This document shows positions 11,104 to 55,248 of a DNA stretch of 64,000 nt, piece by piece (the first letter of the stretch is position 1; every line of letters begins with the position of its first letter). Location: assembly GCA_965221695.1 (NCBI GenBank), contig OZ244905.1, forward strand, positions 416,001-480,000. The letters are read 5' to 3'. The notes under the pieces are model-generated. The model made no database searches, was not told the origin of the DNA, and saw only the letters and a list, made by a program, of their open reading frames with translations. Made by a program: the position numbers and the translations under genes. The stretch is from Gammaproteobacteria bacterium. GTDB taxonomy: Bacteria > Pseudomonadota > Gammaproteobacteria > Eutrophobiales > Eutrophobiaceae.

Positions 11104-11254
11104 GGAAACTCTGAACAAGTCCATCCTGGACTTGTCAGAGTACGAAAAACAAAAATGCGATTTTTGTTTTCCTCACAATATCAATGCCTTACAGTCATTG
11201 ATATTGACGATACATCCTTGTACCGTAGGAACCTCTGACTTAATCAGAGGTTCC
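11104..11254. mobile_element. 151-bp MITE, copy A
   Basis: TIR GGAAACTCTGA/TCAGAGGTTCC, TTAA on both flanks, five internal hairpins. Same length as copies at 39952 and 55098. Confidence 0.92.
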
Positions 11255-11380
11255 TTAAGATGATAAATCATAGCTTCAATCTTGGATATGTCAATTGTAT
11301 ATCCCATAAATTCATGTGTTTGCACGAACCTAAGTTCGCCAACATTGCATCTTGCCCAGATATTTCTCAAGCACTGCCCA

Positions 11381-11461
11381 TGCTTTGTCCAGATCATAAA
11401 CCTTCTGCAGGTTCAAGCGTTGTTCAGGCCCGGTTCCAAAATAACGACCTAAATGCAACGC
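11381..11461 (-). pseudogene. HigA antitoxin C-terminal remnant
   Basis: ALHLGRYFGTGPEQRLNLQKVYDLDKA resembles the HigA motif ALRLxRYFGTxxxFWLNLQxxYDL. No intact N-terminus. Confidence 0.7.
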
Positions 11462-11592
11462 ATGAAGGCAGCTATCAATTCTATTCTGAATGCAAAACAA
11501 AACCAGATAATATTTGTCAAATCTGAGGCAAAAAATAGATGATTAATAGGACTGGCTGCACAATGAGATTCGATTTTTGTTCCTGTACTGTG

Positions 11593-12053
11593 AAAACTAC
11601 CCCTGAAATGGGCTGGCGGAGGCGAGCCAAGCAAACTCAGGCGCTATTTTTTTCACAAAATGTGAGTTTTCTCACAATTTTGCCAATTATTTGCTTGTCA
11701 ACGTTTTGCGCGCCGGTAAGATCGTACCTATCCGAACGCAATGTGCGACAGACGGCCCGCCGATAGTATAGAGGTGTGCATAATTGCGGGATACCGGCAG
11801 CATAACGTTCGGACGTTAGCTTGTGCTGTGCCACAAGCGCCCCTACCATGCCGTACATGGCCTGATTGGCTATCCAGGCCGCGTTAAGGATAACCTGGCG
11901 CCAGGGGGAAGGCGGTGTCTCCTATCCACGCTACATCGCTCCGCCTCCCCCTGGCAGGGGTTTAAGCGCTGGCGCATGCAGATTTACTGGTCTGCCGGAT
12001 ATAATGACCCCAAAGATACACAGCGCTACGCGGGAAACTTCGGCGACAGCCTG
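11593..12053. repeat. Long structured non-coding repeat, copy 2 (~460 bp, uninterrupted)
   Basis: Direct repeat of 8753..9422 with many inverted repeats. Confidence 0.92.
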
Positions 12054-12089
12054 GGCATCTGAATTTCAGTTGGACGAAGGGTCAATGGG

Positions 12090-12383
12090 CTATGATTCGG
12101 TAACATACCCCCATGCCTTGAATTGTTCCTGTAAATCAGGGTCATCCTTGAAGACAAGAAAAAACAGGTATTCAGGCGCCAAATCCAACTTATCAGACCA
12201 AACCACAGCATTATTCTTTACTTGAAATTTTCGGAATAGTGATTTTTCTTTCAGCTTGGAAAATACAGGTCTTTTATCACTGAATATTGTTGATTCAAGG
12301 TTTGCCGTGCCGGTTTTACCATTGCTGAAAACCAGATGAATAGAGTAATCACCTAAATATTCTGCTCGCTCAACCTCTAACAT
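12090..12383 (-). CDS. DUF2442 family antitoxin-like protein
   Basis: AEYLGDYSIHLVFSNG...VVWSDKLDLAPEYL. Confidence 0.85.
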   Translation of the reverse strand: MLEVERAEYLGDYSIHLVFSNGKTGTANLESTIFSDKRPVFSKLKEKSLFRKFQVKNNAVVWSDKLDLAPEYLFFLVFKDDPDLQEQFKAWGYVTES

Positions 12384-12445
12384 TGATGCCTTGTAATCGT
12401 TGAATACTGCGTGAAAGTGGGGGGGTTATGATCATTGAAATACAT
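12384..12445 (-). pseudogene. DUF4160 toxin-like remnant
   Basis: MYFNDHN/PPHFHAVFNDYKA with a 1-nt frameshift in a G7 run; the rest of the gene is deleted. Confidence 0.8.
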
Positions 12446-12511
12446 TTTGAATTTCCAGCAACTCGTCCTTCAGAAACTCTCCCGGGTGGATTGGCTCTCT
12501 GACCATGTTGT

Positions 12512-13696
12512 TCACCTCATTTTGGCCCCCAGCCGAACATCCCGGCTGAAGAATGAGATCCCATTGTTTTTCCTGTAAAGCCTGCGCTTTTCATCCAGAA
12601 GTTTCAATGTGTCTTTATCCTCATAGTACCAGTACATCCAGCCATTGCAGCTTTCGGTGTTATTCAGCAGCGCGCCTATTTTGTGTATTGAGCCGGTACC
12701 TATGCTGTTCTCTATTTTCCCATCGGGTAAAACAATGGCTGAACAGGTTTTGTCTTTAGTGTATAGACACTGGTTTTCCCGTATATACCTGGCTTCCACA
12801 AGCTGTTGCATACTGACCCGTTGTAATCTTTTTGGTGGGGGCTCCACTAACCGAATATTTTGAAACAGGTCAGCGTTGATGGATTTTAACCTGTTTTCTG
12901 CAATGTCTACGTAGCGCGGCTCCTGCTCTATGCCGATACTCCGCCTGTTCAGTTTTTTTGCCACTGCACAAGTGGTGCCACTGCCCAGAAACGGGTCCAG
13001 CACCAGGTCATCTTCATTGCTGCTGGACAGGATTACTCTTTGTAGTAATGCCTCAGGCTTCTGTGTTGAATGGGCTTTTTTGCCGTATCCATCCTTAATG
13101 CGTTCAGCTCCGGTACACAGGGGAATACGCCAGACAGAGGTCATCTGTTTGCCGTCATTAAGCTGTTTCATGACCTGGTGGTTGAAAGTATATTGCTTTT
13201 GTTTCTCCGACTTTTTCGCCCAGATCAAGGTTTCCGTTGCATTCGTGAAGCGCACTCCTCTGAAGTTCGGCATGGGATTGATTTTGTGCCACTGCACATC
13301 ATTGAGGATCCAGTAGCCCAGGTCCATCATGATCTTTCCCACCCGGAAAATATTATGATAAGAACCGATCACCCAGATCGCGCCATCGTCGGCCAATACT
13401 CGCCGGCAGGCGCTCAGCCATTGCCGAGTGAACTCATCGTAGTTCTCGAAAGAAGAGAACTGATCCCAAGCATCGTCGACACCATCTACCAAGGTTTGGT
13501 TGGGCCTGTATAACTCCTGTTTGAGCTGCAGGTTGTACGGTGGGTCGGCAAAAATGAGGTTGACCGATTTCTCCGGCAATTCATGCAGTATTTCAATACA
13601 GTTGCCGGTGTATATACGATAGTCTGAACTACCGAAGTCGCTATTCAGACTCGATAATTTCTCTTGCATGGGAACGGTCACAGTCTCAGCGCTCAT
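12512..13696 (-). CDS. ccrM: CcrM/M.HinfI-like beta-class N6-adenine DNA methyltransferase
   Basis: IFADPPYNLQL, WVIGSYHNIFRVG, NPMPNFRG.RFTNA.ETLIWA, HSTQKPE, DPFLGSGTT, plus the CcrM C-terminal domain GSIHKIGA...CNGW.YW. Confidence 0.85.
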   Translation of the reverse strand: MSAETVTVPMQEKLSSLNSDFGSSDYRIYTGNCIEILHELPEKSVNLIFADPPYNLQLKQELYRPNQTLVDGVDDAWDQFSSFENYDEFTRQWLSACRRVLADDGAIWVIGSYHNIFRVGKIMMDLGYWILNDVQWHKINPMPNFRGVRFTNATETLIWAKKSEKQKQYTFNHQVMKQLNDGKQMTSVWRIPLCTGAERIKDGYGKKAHSTQKPEALLQRVILSSSNEDDLVLDPFLGSGTTCAVAKKLNRRSIGIEQEPRYVDIAENRLKSINADLFQNIRLVEPPPKRLQRVSMQQLVEARYIRENQCLYTKDKTCSAIVLPDGKIENSIGTGSIHKIGALLNNTESCNGWMYWYYEDKDTLKLLDEKRRLYRKNNGISFFSRDVRLGAKMR

Positions 13697-13699
13697 AAT

Positions 13700-14077
13700 T
13701 TATTTGTACTCAGACACATTCGGTTCGCTTATTCCCTCCAAAGCCGGGTATGTCAACGCGCGTTCAATGGATTGTTTGACAAATTCATTCAAGTTCAGGT
13801 TTTTCTCTTTTGCAACGGTGAGAGCCTGTCGGTGCAACGCCGGACCGATACGCACATTAAAAGAGCCTTTGCACGGCTTGATTGGCTCTCTTCCAGCCTC
13901 TCTGCAATCAAGCAGGTAATCTTCAACAGCTTGTTCAAATGCCTGTTCCAACTCCGGCATATTTTGCCCCTCGTATGTGACCAACGGCTCAATAAACTCC
14001 AATTTGCCATATAAACATTTATCTTCAACACTGGCCTCTATCGAACCGTAAAACCCTTTGTATTTGAATAAGCTCAT
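13700..14077 (-). CDS. hicB: HicB antitoxin
   Basis: YKGFYGSIE...AVEDYL..C...KPCKGSFNVRI.PALH. Confidence 0.92.
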   Translation of the reverse strand: MSLFKYKGFYGSIEASVEDKCLYGKLEFIEPLVTYEGQNMPELEQAFEQAVEDYLLDCREAGREPIKPCKGSFNVRIGPALHRQALTVAKEKNLNLNEFVKQSIERALTYPALEGISEPNVSEYK

Positions 14078-14322
14078 AATAATTCCGCATCTTTCAGTTT
14101 GATCAGCACCAATCTCTGCACATACTTTTTTATCTCATTTCCCGGGTGCGGACGATGCAGGTTAATGATATGTTCCTGATTTCCATTATCGAATTTCACC
14201 CTTGATCCTTTACCTTGTATTTCTTTATAACCCAAAGATATCAACAAGGTTCTCAACTCCTGCCAGCTAATCGACTTTTTGTCATCCAATAACTTGGATT
14301 TCAACTTCTCCCTTCTGCTCAT
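14074..14322 (-). CDS. hicA: HicA toxin
   Basis: MSRREKL..., GSRVKF, LHRPHPG; ATGA overlap with hicB. Confidence 0.9.
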   Translation of the reverse strand: MSRREKLKSKLLDDKKSISWQELRTLLISLGYKEIQGKGSRVKFDNGNQEHIINLHRPHPGNEIKKYVQRLVLIKLKDAELL

Positions 14323-14539
14323 CAAGACATTATAGAGCGGCAGATGCGTAATGCAACTATTTTGTAGTCGCAATTCGGGATTGGGATTTACATGCTCAAA
14401 ATTTGGAGAATAACAGCTATAATTTAGTTAATCTCCGGCAAATTGTGAAACGACTGGCGATTGTCAGGGATGGCAGGTCTTGAATTCATAAATGTAGCTA
14501 TTGTAACAATAGTATTGACACTATATATTGTTGTTAACT

Positions 14540-15016
14540 ATGGAAATTGACAAACATTATCTGCGCATCGCATTCAAGGAGGCAGTGAACGCCCGCGCAC
14601 GCGGCAACCATGCGTTTGGGGCGTTGCTGGTGGATGCTGACGGTAAGCCGGCCCTGGCGGCGAAGAACTCGGTGGTCACTGATAGCGATGTCACCGCTCA
14701 TGCTGAGATTAACCTGATCCGGGCTGCATCCAAGAAATTCAAGCCTGAACAGTTAATGGGGTTTACCCTTTATGCCAGCGCCGAGCCTTGCCCAATGTGC
14801 GCTGGCGCAATTGTATGGGCGAATATTCGCCGGGTTGTTTTTGGACTGGGGATGGAAGACATTTACCGGCTTTTGGGTGGCGTCCCCGACGCCCCTGGGC
14901 TTCGAATGCGCGCGCTTGATGTGTTCGCCGCAGCCCCCTGGCCGGTGGAAGTGGTCGGCCCCTTGCTTGAAGACGAGGCTCGTGAAGTGTTTGTACAGGA
15001 GCCGAACTCTGCTTGA
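14540..15016 (+). CDS. Zinc-dependent nucleoside/guanine deaminase family protein
   Basis: FGALLV, HAE, EPCPMC motifs. Confidence 0.88.
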   Translation: MEIDKHYLRIAFKEAVNARARGNHAFGALLVDADGKPALAAKNSVVTDSDVTAHAEINLIRAASKKFKPEQLMGFTLYASAEPCPMCAGAIVWANIRRVVFGLGMEDIYRLLGGVPDAPGLRMRALDVFAAAPWPVEVVGPLLEDEAREVFVQEPNSA

Positions 15017-15026
15017 GGCCAGGAAC

Positions 15027-18000
15027 TTACATACTGCGCCGGTACTGCCCGCCGGTGGCAAAGAAGGCGTCGGTCAATTGGCCCAGGGAACAATAGCGTA
15101 CCGCGTCCATGAGTTCCGCAAACACGTTGTCGTTATTGATCACCGCATCGCGGATGCGTTCCAGGGCGCGTGCCGCTTCGTCCCTGTTCCTGTCTTCAAA
15201 ATCCTGCAAACGCGTTAACTGGCTTTGCTTTTCTTCGTCTGTTGAACGGCTCAACATGGCAACGGAATGTTCATTCTCGTCCGGATTCAGGAATGTATTC
15301 ACGCCGATAATGGGGTAACTGCCGTCGTGCTTCCTGTGCTCGTAATACAAGGATTCATCCTGTATTTTACCTCTCTGGTAACCGGTCTCCATCGCGCCAA
15401 GCACGCCGCCGCGCTCGGAGATGCGCTCGAATTCCCGTAGCACCGCCTGTTCCACCAGGTCGGTCAGTTCCTCAATGATAAACGAACCCTGGCTGGGATT
15501 CTCGTTCATCGCCAGGCCCCATTCCTTGTTGATGATCAACTGGATCGCCAAAGCGCGCCGCACCGAATCTTCGGTGGGCGTGGTCACTGCTTCATCAAAC
15601 GCATTGGTATGCAAGCTGTTGCAGTTGTCGTAGACGGCAATCAGGGCTTGCAAGGTGGTGCGAATATCGTTGAACGCCATCTCCCGGGCATGCAGGGAGC
15701 GTCCGGAGGTCTGGATATGATACTTGAGCCGCTGGCTGCGTTCATCCGCGCCGTACCGGTCCCGCATCGCGACGGCCCAGATACGCCGGGCTACGCGGCC
15801 GAGCACCGTGTACTCCGGGTCCATGCCGTTGGAGAAGAAAAATGACAGGTTGGGGGCGAAATCATCGATATGCATCCCACGGGCAAGGTAGGCTTCGACG
15901 AAGGTAAATCCATTGGCCAGGGTGAAGGCAAGCTGTGAAATCGGGTTCGCGCCGGCTTCAGCGATGTGATAACCGGAAATCGACACCGAATAAAAGTTGC
16001 GGATGTTATTGTCGATGAAGTACTGCTGAATATCTCCCATCATGCGCAGGCTGAATTCAGTGGAAAAAATACAGGTATTCTGGCCCTGGTCTTCCTTCAG
16101 GATATCGGCCTGCACGGTGCCGCGCACATTCTCCAACGCCTGCGTTCTGATGCGGGCGGATTCTTCTGCATCCGGTTCCCGGTCATGTTCCTGTCTGAAT
16201 TTCCGCACCTGCTGGTCGATCGCAGTGTTCAGGAAGAAGGCCAGGATGGCAGGCGCCGGACCGTTGATGGTCATGGAAACGGAGGTATCGGGATCACACA
16301 GGTCAAAGCCTTCATACAAGGCTTCCATGTCATCAAGCGTGGCGATGGATACGCCTGAATTGCCGACCTTGCCGTAGATATCCGGCCGCTCGTCCGGGTT
16401 GAACCCGTATAAGGTCACTGAATCAAACGCGGTTGAGAGGCGCTTGGCGCCGGAATGTTCAGACAGCTTCCTGAAGCGCCGGTTGGTCCTGAATGCGTCT
16501 CCTTCCCCGGCAAACATCCGGGTCGGGTCTTCATTCTCCCGCTTGAACGGGAACACGCCGGCCGTATAAGGGAAATATCCGGGGAGGTTTTCCCGCATCA
16601 GCCAACCCAGCAGTTCGCCATGGTCCGAATAGCGCGGCAGAACAACCCTGGGGATCACGGTTCCGGAGAGCGTCGTGTACGTGGTTTGTGTCCGGAACTC
16701 CCGGTCCCGTACCTTTGTAACAAATTCGTCAGCCTGGTACTGGCCGCTGAGTTCAGGCCAACTATCCAGCAGTTCCTTGCAGCGCGGGTCAAGGCTTTCT
16801 TCTTTCTGTGCGGCCAGACGCGCCAGTTGTTCGCCGGTAGTCGGCTCAACACCGTTGCCTTCGGACTGCAACAGCGCCAGGCTCGCGCGCAGTTGCTGCG
16901 CCTCCCGCGCAATGCCCACCTGCTGGTCTACATGCTGGTGGTAGTCTCGAACGGCGGTGGCAATTTCACCCAGGTAACCCTGGCGCTGTGGCGGAATAAT
17001 AACAGCGCGTTCCCTAGAGGTCTTGTCTGTCACAACAGCCAGGGCGCTCTCGAATTCCGGCAGCCCCTTGTACCTGAGAGCAGGCAACAGTCCCTGGTAT
17101 AAAGCAGTCACCCCGGCATTATTGTATTTTGCGGCAATGGTGCCGTAAACAGGCATATCATCCGGGGCTACTGTGAACTGCTCGCGGTTGCGTTGCAATT
17201 GCTTGGCGACATCCCGGCGAGCGTCCTCGGCGCCCTTGCGATCAAACTTGTTGATAGCCACAGCCTCGGCAAAATCCAGCATATCGATTTTTTCCAGTTG
17301 GCTGGCAGCGCCGAACTCAGGCGTCATCACGTATAAGGGGACATCAACCAGGGAAACAATACCGGCATCCCCCTGTCCAATTCCAGGTGTCTCGACGATA
17401 ACCAGTTCAAATCCGGCCAATTTCACAGCGTTTATGATATCCGGCAGGTATTCCGGAATTTCCTTTGCCGCGTTACGGGTGGCCAGGGAACGCATGAATA
17501 TCGTTTCATGGTAAATCGAGTTCATACGGATGCGGTCACCCAATAACGCGCCACCGGTCTTCCTGCGGGTAGGATCAATCGCCAGCACTGCGATTCTCAG
17601 GCTATCCCGACTGTCCAGGCGAAACCGCAGGATGATTTCATCGGTAAGCGATGATTTGCCGGCGCCACCTGTGCCGGTAATACCCAATACGGGCGTACGG
17701 ATACTCTTTGCTGAGACTTGGCGGTCCAGTTCTGCGCCCAGTTCACGGGTGTAACGGTTGTTTTCAATCGCACTGATCACCCTGGACAGGATAATTTCAT
17801 CTCCGTTCAACAACTCATCCGGTGTAACGGGATGCGCGGTGCAGGTAGCTGCACTGCTCGCATTGAGCATGTCGTCAATCATTCCTTGCAATCCCAGGTT
17901 ATGCCCGTCTTCAGGTGAATAGATGCGCTGTACACCGTAATCCTGCAATTCACGTATCTCATCCGGAATAATCACACCACCACCGCCACCGAATACCTTG

Positions 18001-18290
18001 ATATGCCCGGCGCCGTGCTCCCGAAGCATATCCACCATGTATTTGAAATATTCCACGTGTCCGCCCTGGTACGAGCTGACGGCAATACCTTGTACGTCTT
18101 CCTGCAGGGCTGTTCTTACAATCTCGTACACGGAACGGTTATGTCCCAGGTGGATTACCTCGGCCCCGGACTGCTGCAGGATACGCCTGATGATATTGAT
18201 GGATGCGTCGTGACCGTCAAACAGGCTGGCCGCAGTGACAAAGCGCGGTGCCGTCACAGACTGTTTGGTTTCAGATGTGGTAGTCGCCAT
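15027..18290 (-). CDS. icmF: Fused isobutyryl-CoA mutase/GTPase IcmF
   Basis: B12 motif DGHDAS, P-loop GTGGAGKSS, mutase domain RMFAGEG (Phe specificity residue). Confidence 0.96.
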
Positions 18291-18324
18291 TGTTATTTGC
18301 AATATGAGCTTGGATACATTATAA

Positions 18325-21978: not shown

Positions 21979-22060
21979 TTATTTACCTGCTGATGACCAG
22001 AACTCTGTACGCCCCGATCGCCCGTAAATTTTGGCACAGACCAGGGCAGTCCCCCGTACC

Positions 22061-22080
22061 ACTCCCGCGGAAGCGGGAGT
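22061..22080. repeat. ATTCCC-N8-GGGAAT-type palindrome (compensated variant)
   Basis: ACTCCCGCGGAAGCGGGAGT followed by CCAG. Confidence 0.7.
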
Positions 22081-22120
22081 CCAGTCTAATACTGTGTCGC
22101 CTGCAAGGCGAACCTTACAG

Positions 22121-24630: not shown

Positions 24631-25005
24631 TTAAGCCCCCCATCGCGGGCAGTGCCCCCTGCCCATTGATGTAAATGGTGCCCAGGGCCGGACTTGAAAG
24701 TAAGCCATAACTAATTGTTTAGTAGGTTCTTTTATAAGCTATTGGTTCTTAATACCGCCATATATACCGACAACGTTATAAGTAGGATTTGAGCCTTAAC
24801 CAAATTTTTTGATCCGAGTCCTTTTGCTCAGATAAAAGGGTGTAAAGAATGTGAAGCCCGCCCGAACAGCCCCATAGATGGGAGCTAAAAGCCAGAAATT
24901 CTCAAATAACGTTTAGCTAGAGACTATACGTTTCAGGTCAGATGCAAATTTAACGAGCTTAGAGTTTGAACCGCCCCGGGAATCCCGGAGACTCGTTAGT
25001 TTGAG

Positions 25006-26225
<1,220 letters not shown>

Positions 26226-26889
26226 TGCTCCATCCTCTCAAGAAATGGAGCCTCCGGCAAATCCGGGGCGGTTCAGTTTACACTTTCAATATCAGTTACT
26301 AATTCCTCATATTGCCCATATTTCTGTTGTAATTCTTGGGGAGTGATACCAGTTTTGTCTTGCTCGTCATACCACGCCCTGAATTTTGCTTGCCATTCTG
26401 TCAGGTGGGGACGAAGTCCATCGTTCAAAACATTTAAGGCGACGTCTGTCAGATGCTCAATGCTTCCTTTATCTACACCATGCAGTTTCTCTACAGGAAT
26501 GTCTCTTATCAGCTCTCGAACAACTCCAAATAGTGTGTACCAAGAGTCGTACACCTGAACTATTACATCTTTTTCACGCTCAAATGGTAGTGCTGCTTTG
26601 CGAGTCACCAGCTCAGTCCAAATTTGATGGGCTATCAGTTTTTCTTGATAATTTGCGGTGATCTCAACAGTGCCTGTATTGAATGGCATATTTATGGTAA
26701 TGGTACCGGCTTGACGATTTCGCACTTTCCGAAAAAAAATCCACCAAACTATGCCGATAACGATCAATATAATTGCCACTGCAACCAAGCTGATGGTGAT
26801 ATTTAAGTCCAGGCCATCAATATTTATTGCAAGTAAATTAATGTCTAGCAAGTAGGGTAAATTTTTACCAGACTCTATCCCTTTAGCGT

Positions 26890-36121: not shown

Positions 36122-37825
36122 TTAAAACAGGTTGTATAACTGTGCCAGCGGCAATACCTCAGCCGGTTCACAGGTCAGCAACTCGCCGTCAGCCCGCACT
36201 TCATATGTTTGCGGGTCTACCGTAACAGCCGGCATCCAAGTGTTATGTATCATATCAGCCTTGGTCACAGAACGGCAGTCCTGGCAGGCTGCCAGTCGTC
36301 GTCCCAGCCGCAATCGCTCTGCCACGCCTGCTTCCATTGCAGCGCCACTGACAAATGTGACCGATATATTGCGCGGCGCGGCGCCAAAAGCGCCGAACAT
36401 ATTTCTGTAATGCACTGGTTGTGGCGTTGGAATCGACGCGTTGGGATCGCCCATGGCCGCTGCCGCAATACACCCCCCCTTGATAATCAACGAGGGCTTG
36501 ACGCCGAAAAAAGCGGGTTTCCACAATACCAGGTCGGCAAGCTTGCCTACCTCGACAGAACCAATCTCGCGGGCGATACCGTGAGTGATTGCCGGATTGA
36601 TCGTGTACTTGGCTATATAGCGGCGGGCGCGCAGGTTGTCGTTTTGTTCGGTGTCCCCTTCGAGCGGGCCGCGCTGCAGCTTCATCTTGTGCGCGGTTTG
36701 CCAGGTGCGGGTAATCACCTCGCCCACCCGTCCCATGGCCTGGGAATCCGAAGCGATCATGCTGAATGCGCCAAGATCATGGAAAATATCTTCCGCAGCG
36801 ATGGTTTCCTTGCGAATCCGGGAATCGGCAAAAGCCACATCTTCAGGTATGGCAGCGTCCAGATGATGGCAAACCATCAACATATCCAGGTGTTCGTCCA
36901 CCGTGTTACGGGTATAGGGCCGGGTTGGGTTTGTGGACGACGGCAGTACGTTAGGCTCGCCGCAGGCGCGGATAATATCCGGCGCATGGCCGCCGCCGGC
37001 GCCTTCGGTGTGGTAGGTATGAATAGTCCGCCCCTTGAATGCGGCCAGGGTATCGTCCACAAAGCCGGATTCGTTCAACGTATCGGTATGAATGGCAACC
37101 TGGACATCGAAACGCTCGGCAACATTCAGGCAAGTATCTATTGCCGCGGGTGTCGTGCCCCAGTCTTCGTGCAATTTCAAGCCGCAGGCTCCGGCTGTCA
37201 ATTGTTCTTCCAAAGCCAAGGGCAGACTGGCGTTGCCCTTGCCAAGAAAGCCGAAATTCATCGGCATATCATCAGTGGCCTGCAACATCTTGCCGATATG
37301 CCAGGGGCCTGGCGTGCAAGTGGTTGCTTTCGTACCGGTAGCCGGCCCGGTGCCGCCGCCCAGCATGGTCGTCACACCGGACATCAGCGCTTCCTCCACC
37401 TGCTGTGGGCAGATAAAGTGGATGTGCGCGTCTATGCCGCCGGCGGTCAATATCTGCCCTTCGCCGGCGATGATTTCAGTGCCCGGACCGATCAATACGT
37501 TTATATTGTCCTGTATGTCCGGGTTGCCGGCCTTGCCGATGGCGCTGATGCGCCCTTGCCTGATGCCGAGATCGGCTTTGACGATGCCCCAGTGATCCAG
37601 GATCAGCGCGTTGGTGATGACCGTATCCACACATTCTCTGCCGCCGCGTTGGCTCTGGCCCATTCCGTCGCGAATCACCTTGCCACCGCCAAACTTGACC
37701 TCCTCTCCGTAGTGGGTAAAGTCTTTTTCCACCTCTATGATCAGCGCGGTGTCGCCCAACCGCACCCGATCACCGGTAGTCGGACCAAACATGGCTGCGT
37801 AAGACTGTCTGTCAATTGTGCTCAT
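36122..37825 (-). CDS. ureC: Urease alpha subunit
   Basis: GPTTGD, DAHIH, KLHEDWG, MVCHHL. Confidence 0.98.
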
Positions 37826-38523: not shown

Positions 38524-39372
38524 TTATGTAAACCAGATGCGCGGCGCGCAAGCGGCCCGACCCAGTAGCGGCGACCGTAGGCAGCGCCACCAGGCAGTAT
38601 ACAGTTTGCGCGCATTGGACGCGCTATCGCCGAGATAGCGTCCTATCAGGAAATCGTCCAGCCAGCTCAGCGCTACGCACTGCTCCGTCACGGTCTCGCG
38701 CAGTAATTGTAACAGGGGCACGCGTTTTTCGACAGCATAAGGTCCGGCCAGAAAGATACCGGTAACAGGTTCGCCGCGCAGACTTGCCGGACCATCCAGC
38801 ATCAACGCGCGGTTATCATCATCCAGGCAAAACGCCTCGGTAAACACCGGTTCTCCCTCCCGTATAACACAATAACGTTGTTTGAAACGTCCGCTGTTAA
38901 AACGTTGCTGGCTTGCAGGCAAGCCGAAACATGTCAATTCCCAACCGATAAAACGGCTGTCCCGGTCCAATTCTACGGTTGTCTCGAGTTCAACCCAGGC
39001 GCCGTCAAATACGATGGTTTCCAGTGGAAACCATTCAAGCGCAGCGCCGGCATCAAGTCGCAGGCAGACGCGCTGGCGTTGTAGCGGATTGTTTTCTCGC
39101 GCGCGGTACACCCGGGTGGCGCCTGGCGTGGTAATCAAAGCGCCACAGGCAGCGGAGATATCGACGCTGACATTCAGACTATCGCCCGAGACGATGCCGC
39201 CAGGCGGATGCAACAGGTACAGGTGAGGGTGCTCTTTGCCTTCCGGATAAAAGGGTTTTTGCACATAAAGGGGGCCATTGTGCGCGCAACGCGCCAGGCG
39301 CGTCCTGCCGGCTTCGGCGCGCAGGTTCAATTCGACGTTTGCAGGCCAACCCTGCCCGAAGACTGATTTCAT
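38524..39372 (-). CDS. ureD: Urease accessory protein UreD
   Basis: [29 protein letters not shown]; ATGA overlap with pgsA. Confidence 0.93.
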
Positions 39373-39923
39373 ATATTTTCTTTCAGTTTTGGCCATGCGC
39401 TGGCCAGGTATTGACACATTGATATCAGGGTCAAGATCGCAGCGACATACAACAGGACCAACCCCACCCCATAGACGGGCACGCTGTAAAGCGTGTCATG
39501 GTATATCAACAATGGCAACGCGGCCATCTGGGCGATGGTCTTTATCTTGCCATAGATGGACACAGCCACATTACTGCGCGCGCCCAGTTCCGCCATCCAC
39601 TCCCGCAAGGCCGAGACCGCGATCTCCCTGCCGATGATCACCGCGGCAGGCAAGGACAGCAGGATGCCGGGATTGCGTTCCACCAGCAGCACCAGCGCGA
39701 CCGCCACCATAAGCTTGTCGGCGACGGGGTCGAGAAACGCACCGAGTTTGGAGGTCTGTTGCAGTTTGCGCGCCAGGAAACCGTCCAGCAGGTCAGTGAA
39801 TGCAGCAACGACAAAGACAATGCAGGCCGCTTCATTGCTCCAGTTGAACGGCAGGTAGAACGCGACGACAAAAACGGGTATCAACCCGATGCGAAAAAGT
39901 GTAAGAATATTTGGTAAGTTCAT
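39369..39923 (-). CDS. pgsA: CDP-diacylglycerol--glycerol-3-phosphate 3-phosphatidyltransferase
   Basis: MNLPNILT, DLLDGFLAR...GAFLDPVADK. Confidence 0.96.
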   Translation of the reverse strand: MNLPNILTLFRIGLIPVFVVAFYLPFNWSNEAACIVFVVAAFTDLLDGFLARKLQQTSKLGAFLDPVADKLMVAVALVLLVERNPGILLSLPAAVIIGREIAVSALREWMAELGARSNVAVSIYGKIKTIAQMAALPLLIYHDTLYSVPVYGVGLVLLYVAAILTLISMCQYLASAWPKLKENI

Positions 39924-39951
39924 CTCGTAATACAATGATTTATATATATTA

Positions 39952-40102
39952 GTAAGCTCTGAACAAGTCCATCCAGGACTTGTCAGAGCACGCAAAACAA
40001 AAATGCAATTTTTGTTTTGCTCTCAAATTTAATGACTGATCGTCATTGAATTTGGCGACACATCCCTGTATCGCAGGAAACTCTGACTTAATCAGAGTTT
40101 CC
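39952..40102. mobile_element. 151-bp MITE, copy B
   Basis: Same length and hairpin order as copy A; ATTA on both flanks. Confidence 0.9.
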
Positions 40103-40158: not shown

Positions 40159-41988
40159 TTATTTGTCTCCATGGAATGACGCATAGATTTTTTGAGCCAG
40201 ATTGTTGCTGATTCCTGGCGCGCGGGCAAGCTCTTCTATACCGGCCCTGGAAACACCCTGGAGTCCGCCAAAGTAACGGATAAGGTCGCGGCGCCGTTTT
40301 GCGCCTACACCTTCCACCTCTTCCAGCATGGATTTTGTGCGTTTCTGGTTTCGTTGCCGCCTGTGGCCAGTGATAGCAAACCGGTGGGCTTCATCACGGA
40401 TTTCCTGGATCAGGTGCAGCGCCGATGAACCCGGCGGCAGGCTCATTTCGCTTTTTCCGTCGGATAACACCAGCCGTTCCATCCCGGGCTTTCTCGCCCT
40501 GCCCTTGGCCACACCGAGTAACAGTAATTCGTCAAGCTGCAGTTCTTCCGCCACGGTCCTGACGGAGTTGATCTGACCTTTACCACCATCAATCAGGACC
40601 AGGTCAGGGAGCTTCCCCTCCTCCTTTTTTATGCGCGCATAACGCCGGCTGAATGCCTGAGACAGCGCCGCGTAATCATCACCGGCGGGAATGTCCCTGA
40701 TATTGAACTTGCGATAGTCGGTTTTGACCGCGCCTTCGTGGTTGAATACCACACAGGAGGCGACCGTTGCTTCACCGCTTGAGTGGCTGACGTCAAAGCA
40801 TTCTATCCGTTCCACCGGCTCGTTCAAGCGCAGCACACCCTGCAATTTTTCGAACCGGGACAGGTAACTGTCCCTGGATGAAAGACGCGTCTTCAACGCT
40901 ATTTCCGCATTGTTCAATGCCATTTCCACCCATTTTCTTCTCTCGCTCCTGTGGTTATGCTTGATCCTGACAGTTTTTCCTCTCCTCTCACTCAGCAGGA
41001 CAGTCAACGCTTCCGCATCCGCAACCTGGTGGCTTACCAGGATTTCGCCCGGCGCCGGCCGGTTGCGGGTACCTGCAAGGTAAAACTGGGCCAGGAACGC
41101 ATTGAGTACCTGATCTTCACTCAATTCACCGGTATGGGTCGGAAAAAAAGCCGTGTTACCCAGGTTCAGTCCACCGCGTATGAAAAAGACCTGCACGCAG
41201 GCATACCCGCTCTGCATATGGCAGGCGACGATATCGAGTTCCCCCTTGGGTGCGCTGATATACTGGCTTTCCTGAATTTTCCTCAGGCTGACGATCTGGT
41301 CGCGATACTGCGCAGCACGTTCATAGTCTAACTTGTCCGCCGCCGCCTGCATGGGCCTTGTCAATTCGCGGATCACCTCCTCGTTGCGCCCTTCGAGGAA
41401 CATGACCGTATGTTTCACATCTTCCCGGTAAGTTTCGGGGCCTACCAGTTCCACACATGGCGCGGTGCAACGCTTGATCTGGTATTGCAGGCAGGGCCGG
41501 GAACGGTTGTTGAAAAAATTGTCATCGCACTGCCGGATCTTGAACAGCTTCTGGGTAAGGTTCAGGGTGCGGCGGGCTGACCTGGCGCTGGGGTAAGGAC
41601 CGAAGTACTGTCCCGCCCCCGACTTGGCGCCGCGGTAGAAACTCAACCTGGGAAATTCACTGTCTGTGGATAAATAGAGATACGGGTAGCTTTTGTCATC
41701 CCGTAACACCACGTTATAACGGGGTTTATGCCGTTTTATCAGGTTGCTCTCAAGCAACAAGGCCTCGGCTTCGGTACGCGTAACCGTAACATTGATATCC
41801 CGGATCTGCTTGACCAGCGCCCGGGTTTTGGGAGATTCCGGCTTCTTACCGAAATAGCTAGCGACCCTTTTTTTCAGGTCCCTCGCTTTGCCCACGTAAA
41901 TCAGCGTTCCATCTCCATCAAGCATTTGGTAGACACCCGGATGGTGGGTCATCCTCTCCAGAGATGTTTTATAGTCAAAACTGTTCAT
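40159..41988 (-). CDS. uvrC: Excinuclease ABC subunit C
   Basis: GIY-YIG PGVY...YVGKA, IECFDVSH, LIDGGKGQ, RDEAHRFA, HhH tail. Confidence 0.97.
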   Translation of the reverse strand: MNSFDYKTSLERMTHHPGVYQMLDGDGTLIYVGKARDLKKRVASYFGKKPESPKTRALVKQIRDINVTVTRTEAEALLLESNLIKRHKPRYNVVLRDDKSYPYLYLSTDSEFPRLSFYRGAKSGAGQYFGPYPSARSARRTLNLTQKLFKIRQCDDNFFNNRSRPCLQYQIKRCTAPCVELVGPETYREDVKHTVMFLEGRNEEVIRELTRPMQAAADKLDYERAAQYRDQIVSLRKIQESQYISAPKGELDIVACHMQSGYACVQVFFIRGGLNLGNTAFFPTHTGELSEDQVLNAFLAQFYLAGTRNRPAPGEILVSHQVADAEALTVLLSERRGKTVRIKHNHRSERRKWVEMALNNAEIALKTRLSSRDSYLSRFEKLQGVLRLNEPVERIECFDVSHSSGEATVASCVVFNHEGAVKTDYRKFNIRDIPAGDDYAALSQAFSRRYARIKKEEGKLPDLVLIDGGKGQINSVRTVAEELQLDELLLLGVAKGRARKPGMERLVLSDGKSEMSLPPGSSALHLIQEIRDEAHRFAITGHRRQRNQKRTKSMLEEVEGVGAKRRRDLIRYFGGLQGVSRAGIEELARAPGISNNLAQKIYASFHGDK

Positions 41989-46500: not shown

Positions 46501-47628
<1,128 letters not shown>

Positions 47629-47935: not shown

Positions 47936-49296
47936 GTAATGCACTGCTGATTAACCTGTCTTACGTCGCTTCGGCCGTGCTGTTCATCTTCGGCCTGAAG
48001 ATGCTCAGTTCGCCGGCTACCGCGCGCAACGGCAACCTGGTCTCCGCACTGGGCATGCTGCTTGCCATCGTCGTGACGTTGCTGGACCATTCCATCGTCG
48101 ATTTTCGCTGGATTGCCTTGGGCCTGGTCTTGGGCGGCATCATCGGCGCGCTGGCCGCGCGGCTTGTGGCAATGACCGCAATGCCGGAAATGGTGGCCAT
48201 ATTCAACGGCTTTGGCGGCATCGCCAGCCTGTTCGTTGGCTGGGCCGCGCTGCATTCCGGCGCAATCTCGACCTTCACCGTCGTGACTATCTTCCTGTCC
48301 ATACTTATCGGCGGCCTGACCTTCACCGGCAGCCTTATCGCATTCGGAAAACTGAGCGAGTCAATACCCGGTCGACCCTACATCTTCGCCGGACAGCGCA
48401 CGTTCAACAGCTTGTTGCTGACGGCCATCGTTGTCGTCGGCGTCATGTTCTGTATTGACCCCTCGAACACCACCTTGCTGTATGCGCTGATAGCGCTGTC
48501 GTTCCTGTTCGGCGTCATGGCGGTGATTCCCATCGGCGGCGCTGACATGCCCGTGGTGATATCCCTGCTCAACAGCTATTCCGGCCTGGCCGCATGTGCC
48601 GCGGGGTTTGCCATCAACAACAACATCCTGATCGTTGCCGGCTCCCTGGTGGGCGCAACCGGTATCATCCTGACCAATATCATGTGCAAGGCCATGAATC
48701 GCTCGCTGGCCAACGTACTGTTCAGCGGTTTCGGCGCGGTAAAGACAGCCCTGGCCAAGGTGGAGGGCGAGGTCAAGCCCATCACGCCGGACGATGCGTA
48801 TTACATCCTGGAGGCGGCCAGCAGTGTCGTCGTCGTGCCCGGCTACGGCATGGCTGTGGCCCAGGCCCAGCATGTAGTGAAGGAACTGCAGGAATTGCTG
48901 GAACATAACGGCGCAGAAGTCAGTTACGCGATTCACCCGGTGGCCGGCCGCATGCCCGGACACATGAACGTGCTGCTGGCGGAAGCGGATGTGCCCTACG
49001 ACCTGCTGATCGAGATGGAAGATATCAACCCGCGCATGGAGATGATGGATGTCGCCATCGTCATCGGCGCCAACGACGTGGTCAACCCCGCGGCCCGGGA
49101 GATGGAAGAAAGCCCGATATACGGCATGCCCATCATCAACGTGGACTACGCGAAGACGGTATTCGTACTCAAGCGCTCGATGGCAGCCGGCTTTGCCGGC
49201 GTGGACAACCCACTGTTCTTCGGCGAAAACACCCGCATGCTATTCGGAGACGCGAAGGAATCCATCGGCGCCCTGGTACGGGAGTTCAGTTCGTAA
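47932..49296 (+). CDS. pntB: NAD(P) transhydrogenase beta
   Basis: IGGADMPVVISLLNSYSG, HPVAGRMPGHMN, GANDVVNP. Confidence 0.96.
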   Translation: MSNALLINLSYVASAVLFIFGLKMLSSPATARNGNLVSALGMLLAIVVTLLDHSIVDFRWIALGLVLGGIIGALAARLVAMTAMPEMVAIFNGFGGIASLFVGWAALHSGAISTFTVVTIFLSILIGGLTFTGSLIAFGKLSESIPGRPYIFAGQRTFNSLLLTAIVVVGVMFCIDPSNTTLLYALIALSFLFGVMAVIPIGGADMPVVISLLNSYSGLAACAAGFAINNNILIVAGSLVGATGIILTNIMCKAMNRSLANVLFSGFGAVKTALAKVEGEVKPITPDDAYYILEAASSVVVVPGYGMAVAQAQHVVKELQELLEHNGAEVSYAIHPVAGRMPGHMNVLLAEADVPYDLLIEMEDINPRMEMMDVAIVIGANDVVNPAAREMEESPIYGMPIINVDYAKTVFVLKRSMAAGFAGVDNPLFFGENTRMLFGDAKESIGALVREFSS

Positions 49297-49324
49297 TTAC
49301 AAATCGGGTTGAAACTGGCGGTTG

Positions 49325-50599
<1,275 letters not shown>

Positions 50600-50625
50600 T
50601 CAGTTATCGGGACAGATACATACCA

Positions 50626-51936
50626 TCACTGCCCTTTGTTTTTCCTGTCCAGCGCCCGCAGACGCTCCAGTTTCTCTGCAATTTGTGTCTCAAGACCCCG
50701 GTTTGTCGGATAATAGTACCGGCGTTCCGTCATGCCCTCGGGGAAATAGTTCTCGCCTGCCGCATAAGCCTCCGGTTCATCGTGGGCATAGCGGTACTGC
50801 TTGCCGTACCCCAGTTCCTTCATCAGCCGTGTCGGCGCATTGCGCAGGTGTACCGGCACTTCCGCCGATGCGGTGGTCTTCACGTCCTCCATTACCGTAT
50901 TATACGCTTTGTACACTGCGTTGCTCTTTGGCGCGCATGCGAGGTAAACGATGGCCTGGGCAATCGCCAGCTCCCCTTCAGGCGAACCCAGTCGCTCCTG
51001 GGTCTCCCACGCGTCCAGGGCCAGGCGCAGTCCCCTGGGGTCTGCATTGCCTATGTCTTCAGAGGCCATGCGCACCACGCGCCTGGCAATATACAGGGGG
51101 TCGCAGCCTCCATCAAGCATACGCGCAAACCAGTACAAGGCCGCATCCGGGGCCGAACCGCGCACGGACTTGTGCAACGCGGAGATCTGCTCGTAAAATA
51201 CCTCTCCCCCCTTGTCGAAACGCCGGTAGCCGGCGCCGCTGATCACTTCGCTCACCAGCTCATCGGTGACCTGTTGCGCGGATGCCAGGTCTGCGGCAAC
51301 CTCCAACAGGTTGAGCGCGCGCCTGGCGTCGCCGTCGGCGCTGGATACCAGGAGTTGCAGCGCTTCGTCGGTGATCTCAAGGTTTTTGTCGCCCAGTCCA
51401 CGCTGCCGGTCCTGCAATCCCTCTATGACTACCTGCTTCAGGTGCGCCACACTGAGCGGTTTCAGCACATAGACACGCACCCTGGACAACAGTGCGTTGT
51501 TCAGTTCGAACGACGGGTTCTCGGTGGTGGCGCCGACGAAGGTGATGGTGCCGTCCTCCACATGCGGCAGGAACGCATCCTGTTGCGACTTGTTGAAGCG
51601 GTGTGCTTCATCGATGAACAGAACAGTGTCCTTTTGGTACATATCCCGGTACTGGCGCGCCTTTTCTATGGCCGCACGGATCTCCTTAACGCCGCTCAAC
51701 ACCGCGGAGAGGGTCAGGAATTGCGCACTGCAGGAACTGGTTACCAGGCGGGCAAGCGTGGTTTTACCCGTTCCGGGCGCGCCCCAGAATACCATGGAGT
51801 GCAACTGGCCCTGTTCAATGGCGCGGCGCAGCGGCTTACCCGGTCCGATAAGGTGTTCCTGCCCGGCAAACCCGTCCAGGGTTTCCGGCCGCATTCGATC
51901 CGCCAGGGGGCGATATTCGTTACTGGCAGAAGCCAC
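50626..51936 (-). CDS. rarA: Replication-associated recombination protein A
   Basis: [34 protein letters not shown]. Confidence 0.96.
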
Positions 51937-51945
51937 GACTCCGGG

Positions 51946-52560
51946 CTAGTTCTCTTGTCTTGCGTCGATGACTTCCATTTCGTCTGTGGGTATAAACGTA
52001 AACAGCGCCTGGTCCAATTCCGGGTTGCGCACCACATTTTCAAAGGAGATCAGCAGGGTCTGCCCCAGGTTATCGAACAGCGTCATGCCCCCCAGCTCAT
52101 CGCCCAGGAACAGCAGGCGTAGCAGGCGGTAGTGGGGTTCAGGGTTCCTCGGGATCAAATCCACCCATACACTGCCATCCTGATCTTCCAGTTGCCTGAT
52201 GGTGAAATACTCGTCCAGGTCTGTATCGCCGTCGAAAATAAGCGCCGGGGTATCCTCTATGGACTCAGATACATCACTGATGGTGACCTGCTCCAGGTCC
52301 GCCTCGTAAATCCACAGGTTGGCGCCGTCGCTGATGATTTTCTGGACATACGGTTCACGATAGAACCAGTAAAACATACCGGGACGGCGCAGACGCAGCG
52401 CTCCCCGGGACGATTCCAGCGCCTCGCCGGATGAGTCGAGCAGCACTTGTCGAAAATCCGCCGAGAAGGTATCCAGATCATCGAGAAATACATCCAGCGG
52501 GTTAGCGGCCGCCGCATTCACTGCCAGGGATAGGAGTATTGCGCAAATATTACGCATCAT
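51946..52560 (-). CDS. lolA: Outer-membrane lipoprotein carrier LolA
   Basis: Signal peptide, SADFRQ, RPG.F.W, DLEQVT; ftsK-lolA-rarA synteny. Confidence 0.92.
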   Translation of the reverse strand: MMRNICAILLSLAVNAAAANPLDVFLDDLDTFSADFRQVLLDSSGEALESSRGALRLRRPGMFYWFYREPYVQKIISDGANLWIYEADLEQVTISDVSESIEDTPALIFDGDTDLDEYFTIRQLEDQDGSVWVDLIPRNPEPHYRLLRLLFLGDELGGMTLFDNLGQTLLISFENVVRNPELDQALFTFIPTDEMEVIDARQEN

Positions 52561-52566
52561 ATACGT

Positions 52567-54909
52567 TCAATCCACTGGCGGTGGCGGTCCCGCCAGTATT
52601 TCCCGGCTGCCGTTGGCTTCCAGTGGGCCTACCAGGCCGCTGGCCTCCATTTCTTCGACGAGCCGGGCCGCGCGGTTATAGCCGATCTTGAGCCTGCGCT
52701 GGATATAGGAAATGGATGTCTTGCGGGTTTCGGTAACGATCCTCACCGCCTCGTCATAAAGCGGGTCGGCATCGTCCGGGCTGGTCTCAAGCCCCGGTAT
52801 CGGCGCCGCCCCGCCATTATTCGGGTCCAGGGTGATGTTATCCAGGTAGTTCGGACCGCCGCGGCTCTTCACGTTCTCGACGACCTTGTGCACCTCGTGG
52901 TCATCGACAAACGCGCCGTGTACCCGGATCGGCACGCTGGTGCCCGGCGGCAGGAACAGCATGTCGCCGTGCCCGAGCAGGTTCTCTGCGCCCATCTGAT
53001 CAAGTATCGTGCGCGAATCCACCTTGGAGGAAACCTGGAATGCGATACGGCAAGGAATATTGGCCTTGATCAGTCCAGTGATGACATCCACGGACGGACG
53101 TTGCGTGGCCAGGATCAGGTGGATGCCGGAAGCACGGGCCTTCTGCGCCAACCTGGCAATGAGTTCTTCCACTTTTTTGCCGACCGTCATCATCATATCC
53201 GCCAACTCGTCAATCAGGATGACGATAAAAGGGAGTTCTTCCAACTCCGGCGCGTTATCCTCGTCATCTATCGGCGTGTGGAACGGGTCCTTCAACGGCT
53301 GGCCGCGGCCGGCCGCTTCATGAATTTTCTTGTTATAACCATTGATATTGCGCACACCCAGCGCCGCCATCAGCCGGTAACGGCGTTCCATCTCGGAGAC
53401 GCACCAGCGCAGCGCGTTTGCCGCTTCCTTCATATCCGTGACGACCGGCGTCAATAAGTGCGGGATGCCTTCGTAAACGGATAACTCGAGCATCTTCGGG
53501 TCGATCATGATCAAGCGGATTTTTTTCGGGGGAGACTTATACAACAGGCTCAGGATCATCGCGTTGATTGCAACGGACTTGCCCGACCCGGTTGTGCCGG
53601 CAACCAGCAGGTGCGGCATGCGGCTCAGGTCCATGACCACGGGATGACCACTGATGTCCTTGCCTAGCGCCAGGGCTGTAGCCGAATGGAGCTCCTCGTA
53701 CTCCTTGGAACCCAGTATTTCACTCAAGGTGACCAGTTCGCGGGTGGTATTGGGTATTTCCAGTCCGATCACAGATTTGCCCGGGATCACATCGACCACG
53801 CGCACGCTGATTACCGACAACGACCTGGCCAGGTCCGTGGCAAGATTGCTGATCTGGCTGCCTTTTACGCCCGGCGCCGGTTGCAGTTCAAATCGTGTAA
53901 TCACCGGACCGGGATTGACGGCCACCACCTCCACCTGGATATTGAAGTCAAGCAGCTTCAGTTCCACCTGGCGCGACATGGCCTCCAGGGTCGCTTCCGA
54001 ATACCTGCCCTGGGACGGTCGGGGCTTGTCAAGCAGGTTCAACGGCGGCAAGGCCGCATCCGGCGGTATTTCGAACAGTGGTTCCTGCTTTTCCGCCTCG
54101 GCGCGGGCGCTGGATTCCACCTTGCTGACAACGCGTTCGATACGCGGCGGTGGCCTGTCTCTGATTTTTTTTTGTTGATTTCTCACCACCTCAGCGCGTT
54201 GTTTCTTAGTGGTGTGATAATTAATAAACTGAATTAAGTTAGAAGTATAATATACTGTTTTTTCTATTATTCTTAATGTCATATATCCGGTTTTTTCGAT
54301 CAGCCACAGCCATGACATTCCGGTGTAAAGCGTCAGACCAGCCAATACCATGGCTAGCATCAGCAGCGCGCTGCCGGCATGGCCAAGCGCCGCAAGCAAA
54401 AACTTACCGAAGGCAATGCCTAGTATTCCGCCAGCGCCGCTGACCTGATCTGGCAAGTGCGCAGGTAGATGCGCTCCGCTGTGCCCTTGCAACCAGGCCA
54501 GCGCGCACGCGCCAGAGAACAGGAGGACAAATCCGAATGTTCGCAACCCGATCAGAACACGGGTGACTGGCATACCACCCTGGCGCGATTTGAATACGCG
54601 CCATCCATCAAAGATGATTACCAGGGGGAGCAGGTATCCCGGATAACCGAACAGGTAAAGCAGGATATTGGCAATATAGGCGCCTGCCCGTCCTCCTTCA
54701 TTATGCACTTCGGCAATATTGACTGCTTGCGTCCAGCCTGGATCGGCGGGATTATAGGTCAATAACGACAGCGCTATGAACAACGCGCTGGCTATCACGA
54801 AGATAAAGCTGATTTCTTTGATGTAGCGTACAACCTCTATCTTAGAAACCGTGCCGGATTGTTTTTTTCTCGATGCCTGCTTCACGTTGTAATCGGGTCG
54901 AAATGACAC
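52567..54909 (-). CDS. ftsK: DNA translocase FtsK
   Basis: N-terminal TMs, [15 protein letters not shown], gamma domain IGYNRAARL. Confidence 0.97.
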
Positions 54910-55097
54910 ATCCTTATTGAATTTGGCTATACATCTCTGGACCTAGTATTTAACCAGAGGTTCCTGCGATTAATATTAAGTGGTATTGCCAAAAAAGAAA
55001 AGAGGCGATGCTGAAGCCAGTTTTTTCCTGGGAGCGCGGGTGTCTCGCTTGCATCAGACTATCGGACCGGCTCCCGAGCCCTCAAGAATATAATTAA

Positions 55098-55248
55098 GGA
55101 AGCTCTGAACAAGTCCATTCCGGACTTGTCAGAGCACGCACAACAAAAATGCGATTTTCGTCGTGCTCACACAATCAATGACTTATCGTCATTGATTGTG
55201 GCGTTACTTCCCTGTATCGCAGGAAACTCTGACTTAATCAGAGTTTCC
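55098..55248. mobile_element. 151-bp MITE, copy C
   Basis: TIR GGAAGCTCTGA/TCAGAGTTTCC, TTAA on both flanks. Confidence 0.92.

Follow-up and report, generated by a model that had tools for sequence, protein, structure and literature searches.

A stretch of 64,000 nucleotides from the genome of an uncultured gammaproteobacterium (bases 416001-480000 of a single 3,539,060-bp contig, 55% G+C; hereafter the window, with C1 for its contig and G000 for its genome) carries three copies, A, B and C, of a 151-bp MITE (miniature transposable element with inverted repeats). It is almost certain that these copies belong to a non-autonomous family of the IS5 group of insertion sequences (IS), and in this genus of uncultured Gammaproteobacteria the family is abundant and has recently been active. 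One strand of the element, which we call the GGA strand, is predicted to fold into hairpins with GGA in their loops, one of them in the exact consensus context of the global regulator CsrA. That we are dealing with an IS5-group MITE whose CsrA-binding hairpins are selectively maintained on the GGA strand is a reading to which, on sequence evidence, we would give even chances.

Each of the three window copies is exactly 151 bp long, and their positions, their 11-bp terminal inverted repeats and their 4-bp flanking duplications (TTAA, ATTA and TTAA) were all as described in a first-pass annotation of this DNA. The ends read GGAA(A/G)CTCTGA ... TCAGAG(G/T)TTCC, with copy B starting with GTAA, and the mean column identity of the three copies, taken over the elements plus 10-bp flanks, is 90%. 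On the minus strand, which is the GGA strand here, the 12-mers quoted in that annotation proved correct to the base: GUACAAGGAUGU at 11212-11223 in copy A, AUACAGGGAUGU at 40060-40071 in copy B and AUACAGGGAAGU at 55206-55217 in copy C. The second hairpin, for which GGA had been claimed in all three copies, could likewise be read in each of them, as CCAGGAUGG in copy A, CCUGGAUGG in copy B and CCGGAAUGG in copy C.

The consensus obtained for CsrA by systematic evolution of ligands by exponential enrichment (SELEX) is given as RUACARGGAUGU, in which ACA and GGA do not vary and GGA occupies the loop of a hairpin (PMC4347634), and the structure-based consensus given for RsmE is (A/U)CANGGANG(U/A) (PMC6849547). 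The hairpin that holds the 12-mer, H4', matches both of them, with ACA-N-GGA-N-GU in a 6-7-bp stem, while the second hairpin, H1', reads C-N-GGA-U-G. In the predicted structure, which is supported by the covariation described below, GGA would thus stand in a hairpin loop in the A(N)GGA / RUACARGGAUGU context.

To see how general this is, the 3.54-Mb genome was searched with nhmmer (E<1e-3), using a profile of the three window copies. This gave 209 family hits, including 87 near-full-length copies, split 43 to 44 between the two strands, of which 66 are exactly 151 bp long. The exact 12-mer is present in 78 of the 87 near-full copies and ACANGGANGU in 82, and the H1' loop has the form CNGGANG in 79 copies, 70 of these with CAGGAUG. 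Among unique copies from other genomes, ACANGGANG is kept in 64/70 and the GGA of the H1' loop in 69/70. In the whole genome, the exact 12-mer occurs 103 times, against about 1.3 occurrences expected by composition, and 99 of these 103 lie within family hits.

The claim that the GGA loops are more conserved than the rest of the element was examined by counting, for each column, the parsimony changes on a tree of 147 unique copies; these came from several genera, and the tree itself rests on 151 columns. The TCC of the H4 loop (the complement of GGA) showed 1, 3 and 3 changes and the flanking C, T and G showed 0, 0 and 2, while the two N positions of the motif had changed 12 and 14 times. Similarly, the TCC of the H1 loop showed 1, 5 and 4 changes, compared with 20 at the N position of H1. 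Since unpaired columns average 7.8 changes (most others 5-22) and paired columns 5.4, the claim holds, and the conserved versus free positions reproduce ACA-N-GGA-N-G exactly. The two strands also differ in their stems. Stem mismatches had arisen as G·U on the GGA strand in 145 cases and on the other strand in 98 (p=0.003), and the substitution spectrum of the stems (192:154) leans the opposite way from that of the unpaired columns (30:107; Fisher p=1e-11).

The element had been said to keep five hairpins with compensatory changes, and this was borne out by a covariation test. For this purpose, 76 copies (the 3 from the window and 73 unique ones from other genomes, two with long insertions being left out) were aligned on the GGA strand to a model derived from the three window copies. 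We supplied the five-helix structure ourselves, because the RNAalifold consensus was fragmentary. In the alignment, 93.5% of the paired cells were complementary versus 86.0% in shuffles, 33 of the 59 pairs had changes on both sides versus 17.1 in shuffles, and the covariation score was 0.227 versus 0.099. None of 500 shuffles reached the observed pairing, two-sided or covariation values, and when partners were slid by 1-3 columns as a control, only 33-45% of the cells were paired. Stems H2, H3 and H4 have been rewritten wholesale between genera with their pairing kept, and H5 consists of the two inverted repeats back to back.

The mobility of the element can be read from its flanks. Identical 4-bp flanks were found in 63 of the 87 near-full copies (TTAA 32, CTAA 7, TTAG 7, CTAG 2, and others), and the left flank fits YTAR in 57/87 copies and the right flank in 58/87; YTAR with a 4-bp duplication is the target given for IS5 (PMC5009759). 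For insertions present in relatives at loci L074 and L046, precise empty sites with TTAA or CTAA present once were found in G000. In addition, a contig of run X2 joins position 39923 of the window to 40159 via 29 other letters and therefore represents a relative without copy B. The left end matches the E. coli IS5 end (NC_000913.3) at 15 of 19 bases. In the congener G001, locus L149 holds an 1149-bp IS flanked by TTAA on both sides, with an intact 313-aa transposase (PF01609+PF05598, DDE_Tnp_1 + DUF772). Its ends begin GGAAGCTCTGA and GGAAACTCTGA, which are the two variants of the MITE left end with the first 11 bases identical, and broken copies of this IS were found at L151 (G014) and at L152 and L096 (both G022). 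These features agree with the IS5-group mobilisation put forward in the first-pass annotation, and from its ends the L149-type IS is likely the autonomous partner of the MITE. An IS5-type DDE transposase of this sort would move the MITE in trans, inserting it at YTAR and duplicating those 4 bp.

An IS5-type IS with matching ends is thus present and intact in a congener but not in the window's own genome, where PF01609, PF13586 and PF13359 transposases gave 0 hits and no intact IS with matching ends was found. The sole PF05598 hit there, a truncated DUF772 N-terminus at C1:2871239-2871460 (L007 1279-1887, minus strand; 62-64 bits), was rejected as the partner, as it has no DDE domain and its ends are unlike those of the MITE. 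Pairs of end-like 16-mers lying 0.5-3.5 kb apart in the same genome proved either to enclose ordinary genes between MITE copies or to be matches by chance, and the repeats longer than 500 bp found by self-BLAST have other ends. Loci with only the left end on contigs of other genomes were also discarded as the parent IS, being minimal forms or other elements that share H1. Matching ends were absent from 29 of the 30 PF01609 loci of relatives, and the many-copy genomes G000, G002, G008 and G013 gave no PF01609 hit. At L056 and L061, a different element shares the first ~35 bases of the MITE (hairpin H1) and continues with G+C-rich hairpins, and at L061 it is followed by an IS630-like open reading frame (ORF) and then by the start of an IS5/IS1182-like ORF; this arrangement suggests a modular exchange of end modules.

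At 151 bp, non-coding and with 87 near-full copies, the element has the properties of a MITE, i.e. it is short (less than about 300 bp), non-coding and multi-copy. As judged with our own crude heuristic gene caller (2925 genes, 89% coding), 0 of the 87 near-full copies lie inside called genes; 30 lie between divergent, 15 between convergent and 42 between co-directional genes. Shorter forms are also frequent. Outside full copies there are 135 solo 27-bp palindromes in the genome, each made of two ends back to back, and four 42-bp minimal forms. Because at one site a 27-bp unit in G000 occupies the place where a relative carries the full element, the sequences suggest that this unit arose by deletion between internal direct repeats of the end sequence. 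Beyond this genome, the family was found in 20/22 other species of the genus, in 1/2 other genera of the family and in 3/16 other sampled families of the class. A pattern scan of GTDB representatives gave at least 69 loci, all in uncultured metagenome-assembled genomes and nearly all labelled Gammaproteobacteria. At C1:47098-48507 (L003), a gene for 363 aa lies between two full MITE copies in inverted orientation, and the same layout is seen in a relative at L086, an arrangement that looks like a composite transposon.

The first-pass annotation had asked for csrA to be confirmed in the genome, which indeed contains it as a single canonical gene (PF02599, 89-90 bits, 91 aa, with canonical N-terminal 52 residues) found downstream of an aspartate-kinase-like gene; a tRNA gene lies beyond. 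Of the other genomes that bear the MITE, five were tested, and csrA was present in 5/5; four of these five belong to other genera. A transcribed GGA strand would present the GGA loops of H4' and H1' to this CsrA, and binding would, depending on the context, either bring the downstream gene under CsrA control or titrate CsrA. The leader of vapBC would be the clearest case. Copy A lies between a promoter-like site with 11/12 consensus matches and the vapB ribosome-binding site, so that the vapBC leader would be the whole GGA strand of the MITE. A promoter-like site placed so that it could transcribe the GGA strand was found at copy A only, and this copy is the best single test case. The features of the window that bear on these points are collected in Table 1.

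Table 1. Copies of the MITE in the window, their hairpins, related palindromes and neighbouring genes (window coordinates).
Feature	Position	Strand	Remarks
MITE copy A	11104..11254	+	type 1, left end GGAAAC; 151 bp; flanks TTAA/TTAA; minus strand is the GGA strand
MITE copy B	39952..40102	+	type 2; 151 bp; flanks ATTA/ATTA; uvrC and pgsA (both minus) on either side
MITE copy C	55098..55248	+	type 2 variant; 151 bp; flanks TTAA/TTAA; between ftsK (-) and a TonB-dependent receptor gene (+)
Hairpin H4'	11208..11225 (copy A); 40056-40073 (copy B); 55202-55219 (copy C)	-	predicted stem closed on loop AGGA; copy A reads GUACAAGGAUGU
Hairpin H1'	11108..11141 (copy A); 39956-39989 (copy B); 55102-55135 (copy C)	-	predicted loop AGGAU (CAGGAUG) in copy A
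Sigma-70-like promoter TTGACA-16-TATGAT	11267..11294	-	directly upstream of copy A; 11/12 consensus matches, consensus match only
vapB	10852-11082	-	weak MazE/AbrB-type Pfam match, 22.5 bits, below cut-off; start 21 nt past the left end of copy A
vapC	10433-10852	-	PIN-domain (Pfam); downstream of vapB
pgsA	39369..39935	-	CDP-alcohol phosphatidyltransferase (Pfam); 16 nt from copy B
ureD	38524-39396	-	after pgsA
uvrC	40159-41988	-	upstream of copy B
ftsK	52567..54909	-	start 188 nt from the left end of copy C
Pair of neighbouring solo 27-bp palindromes	1308-1334 and 1338-1364		two family ends back to back, same unit as hairpin H5
Third solo 27-bp palindrome	4910-4936		same end-to-end unit

Two further observations were made around the window copies. 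At the start of ftsK, about 160 bp left of copy C, a stretch of 38 bp (54902-54939) shares 82% identity with the H3-H4 part of the MITE; it is below the nhmmer threshold and may be a relic or a chance match. Around copy A, a 376-bp direct repeat (8749-9124 and 11589-11965, 96% identical) brackets a 2.8-kb segment with an ORF of 326 aa, vapBC and copy A, and this segment may be a duplicated or inserted unit.

From these data we infer that CsrA would bind the element, that binding would affect neighbouring genes and that selection, rather than chance, would keep the motif, but not with equal confidence. A canonical CsrA would very probably bind RNA of the GGA strand in vitro, because the consensus is exact and its structural setting is the right one. 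More doubtful is whether selection for CsrA binding maintains the motif and whether it is of consequence for the cell; this is plausible, but here we would fall a little short of an even chance. More tentative still is the wider proposal, which we consider rather unlikely as a whole, that the family persists across genera since its GGA strand would be a high-affinity CsrA ligand, and that it would be a mobile module supplying ~96% of the consensus sites of the genome, whose transpositions could place genes, such as vapBC, under Csr control or shift the pool of free CsrA.

Several observations weigh against a role of the hairpins in CsrA binding, and each is given here with the explanation that it would favour. 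The strongest of these explanations, which is possible although we would not expect it, is that the element is a purely selfish IS5-group MITE whose hairpins are DNA palindromes that go back to nested or duplicated ends and stay symmetrical through template switching or because transposition requires it, the match to CsrA being coincidental. DNA palindromes can acquire hairpin covariation through template switching, and covariation in a DNA palindrome alone is no proof of a role as RNA. The ends of the element are themselves palindromic, H5 is made of both inverted repeats back to back, and the 27-bp and 42-bp minimal forms exist. H1 lies within the terminal 40 bp, where it overlaps the region similar to the E. 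coli IS5 end, and its conservation could be explained by transposase binding. The copies are also related, so that the cell and site counts given above do not represent independent events.

The orientation of the copies points in the same direction. The first-pass annotation had placed all copies upstream of minus-strand genes (vapB, pgsA-urease and ftsK), and this is correct for the window, where the Pfam context agrees, but it does not generalise to the other copies of the genome. In the 42 co-directional regions, the GGA strand has the sense of the genes in 13 cases and is antisense in 29 (p=0.02). Strict gene calls give 9 and 19, and at the loci of other genomes, once the sites shared with G000 had been removed, the figures are 13 and 20. 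The GGA sense, for which an orientation bias had been expected, is thus not enriched. The family does not systematically target gene leaders in the GGA sense, and the GGA-sense orientation shared by the window copies is happenstance.

On the other side, template switching leaves loops uncorrected, yet TCC/GGA changed only 1-5 times versus 5-22 times elsewhere in the loops, and the pattern of conserved and free positions is exactly that of ACA-N-GGA-N-G. No CATCC/GGATG is found near the ends of the candidate partner IS in congeners, and its transposase therefore seems not to need this motif. The G·U asymmetry is in favour of one strand, contrary to the background substitution spectrum, and the number of 12-mers is far from the ~1.3 per genome expected by chance. 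These points speak against a purely selfish element.

A second explanation places the effect on the forward strand, with type 1 copies acting as portable outward promoters and the structured RNA acting as an mRNA stabiliser like other structured bacterial MITEs, the GGA loops being incidental; we regard this as improbable, but worth considering. It is based on a split of the family, made after the data had been seen, into type 1 (left end GGAAAC; 52 copies) and type 2 (35 copies). In the tandem regions, the GGA strand of type 1 is sense in 4 and antisense in 23 cases, a further point against a GGA-sense function, while type 2 is unbiased (9 versus 6). The right end points toward a gene start in 40/52 type 1 copies (p=1e-4), whereas in type 2 the right end does so in 19/35 and the left end in 22/35. 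Replication-strand bias was rejected as the cause of the orientation bias (44:43), and since the GGA loops are present in both subfamilies, they cannot cause it either. The forward strand of 48/52 type 1 copies and of 6/35 type 2 copies carries a TTGA(A/T)(A/T)-N17-TATCGT motif that reads outward through the right end, and on a master copy a promoter scan scored TTGATA-17-TATCGT with 9/12 matches. The sequences suggest for type 1 a second, non-exclusive effect, as an outward promoter on the other strand. However, the site, which matches the consensus at only 9/12 positions, is conserved neither between subfamilies nor between genera, the split into types is post hoc, and the loop conservation and G·U asymmetry of the opposite strand are left unexplained. 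Such an effect would not exclude CsrA binding by the GGA strand.

The first-pass annotation had offered a mobile post-transcriptional module or a dispersed CsrA sponge. The presence of csrA, the conserved loops and the exact consensus in a hairpin loop agree with this in general, but the sponge form is weak, and we find it very improbable that the copies are small RNA genes like CsrB/RsmZ, each standing alone with a promoter and a terminator of its own. Two GGA-loop hairpins do lie on one strand, UUUCCUU follows the last hairpin, H1', in type 1, there are 99 consensus sites in total, and the RsmZ, RsmY and CsrB models of Rfam gave 0 hits in the genome. Against this, known Csr/Rsm sponges have many GGA sites per RNA, and the 151-nt element has only two good ones. 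Scans found no promoter for the GGA strand inside the element, and no GGA-strand terminator was scored. GacA-type boxes (at most 1 mismatch) occur twice in the genome, both irrelevant and neither beside any copy. No Rfam family matched the copies at gathering scores, and a permissive scan gave chance-level results only, such as a 17-nt match of H4' to the RsmV stem-loop (11.9 bits, E=0.15, for a gathering score of 100). The promoter, GacA/UvrY box and terminator of a Csr/Rsm sponge, as well as the Rfam match, are thus missing from the element in these scans.

Finally, a repeat of the repetitive extragenic palindromic (REP) or bacterial interspersed mosaic element (BIME) type, moved by a REP-associated tyrosine transposase (RAYT), would also be abundant, palindromic and intergenic, and the 27-bp palindromic units outnumber the full copies, but this is highly improbable, as the terminal inverted repeats, the 4-bp YTAR duplication and the precise empty sites are those of cut-and-paste IS5-type insertion, features that are not known from REPs, and a matching IS5-type IS exists in congeners.

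Some other repeats and elements were noticed along the way. A search of the genome for GGA-dense intergenic windows turned up a second, G+C-rich repeat family and an array at C1:1395220-1395530 (L148 520-830). The array is a divergent intergenic inverted arrangement of ACAGGAT / CATGGATG, with 8 GGA per 120 nt in each half. Neither an Rfam match nor a terminator was found in it, and it might represent a Csr-type RNA, a CsrA-controlled leader pair or an operator array. The second repeat family, also abundant, consists of palindromic units (CCACTCCCGCGGAAGCGGGAGTCCAG... and GGATTCCCGC...GCGGGAATGGGA) and is found in the window at 22040-22112, 1396-1429 and 62753-62786 and also near C1 1226021, 1525611, 1605951 and 2317661, and a 73-bp query from the window gave ~140 BLAST hits in the genome. 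At 24967-26275 the window has a 1.3-kb IS whose inverted ends are 39 bp long and which contains an ALIL frameshift pseudoknot (Rfam RF01497, 102 bits) typical of the IS3 family, and this IS has three copies in the genome, the others being at C1:187833 and C1:2302879. The regions C1:1.037-1.107 Mb and 1.934-1.961 Mb are long and internally repetitive, with many repeats longer than 500 bp at 85% identity or more, and look like giant repeat-containing genes. In the urease region, positions 37390-37675 match the Rfam 5_ureB_sRNA model with 134 bits, which may reflect the conserved ureB coding sequence rather than a real small RNA.

The usual view of CsrA regulons is that they evolve one site at a time, leader by leader. 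If CsrA-binding hairpins are indeed what the MITE carries, a transposon with a ready-made, consensus-grade CsrA hairpin would move genes into or out of a global regulon in one step, and bursts of copies would change the pool of free regulator, rewiring a global post-transcriptional regulon. Even without any relevant binding, the family would stand as a well-defined and recently active IS5-group MITE of an uncultured lineage, for which a partner IS can be traced and empty sites, deletion derivatives and a subfamily-specific orientation bias are on record.

In the literature searched, no paper linking MITEs to CsrA was found among the matches listed, and in the text of the 2024 review of prokaryotic MITEs (PMC10969869) 'CsrA', 'RNA-binding' and 'Hfq' gave 0 occurrences. 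QMITE1 and QMITE2 of Coxiella burnetii are described there as giving rise to small RNAs (PMC10969869). By analogy, our element would be another gammaproteobacterial MITE that may contribute a function at the RNA level, but it belongs to a different sequence family, and in what that review says of the QMITEs no link to CsrA is stated (PMC10969869).

With E. coli IS5 and the IS5-group IS, the MITE shares ends that begin with GGAA, the 15/19 end bases and the 4-bp YTAR duplication, and the likely partner IS in a congener has a DDE_Tnp_1 + DUF772 transposase. Unlike these IS, the MITE has no coding capacity, and its interior, with five covarying hairpins, is unrelated to them. CsrB, CsrC, RsmX-Y-Z and RsmV resemble its GGA strand in having GGA in hairpin loops in the A(N)GGA context, the 17-nt resemblance to the RsmV stem-loop not being significant, but the MITE differs from them in being mobile and multi-copy, with two good sites and without a promoter of its own, a GacA box or an Rfam family. 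Structured bacterial MITEs such as the Correia elements of Neisseria and the enterobacterial ERIC/IRU are 100-150 bp long, intergenic and, as RNA, highly folded. Our family is like them in size, folding, orientation-dependent contexts and possible outward promoters, while it is set apart from them by its own ends and sequence, by a YTAR rather than a TA target and by the exact CsrA consensus in a hairpin.

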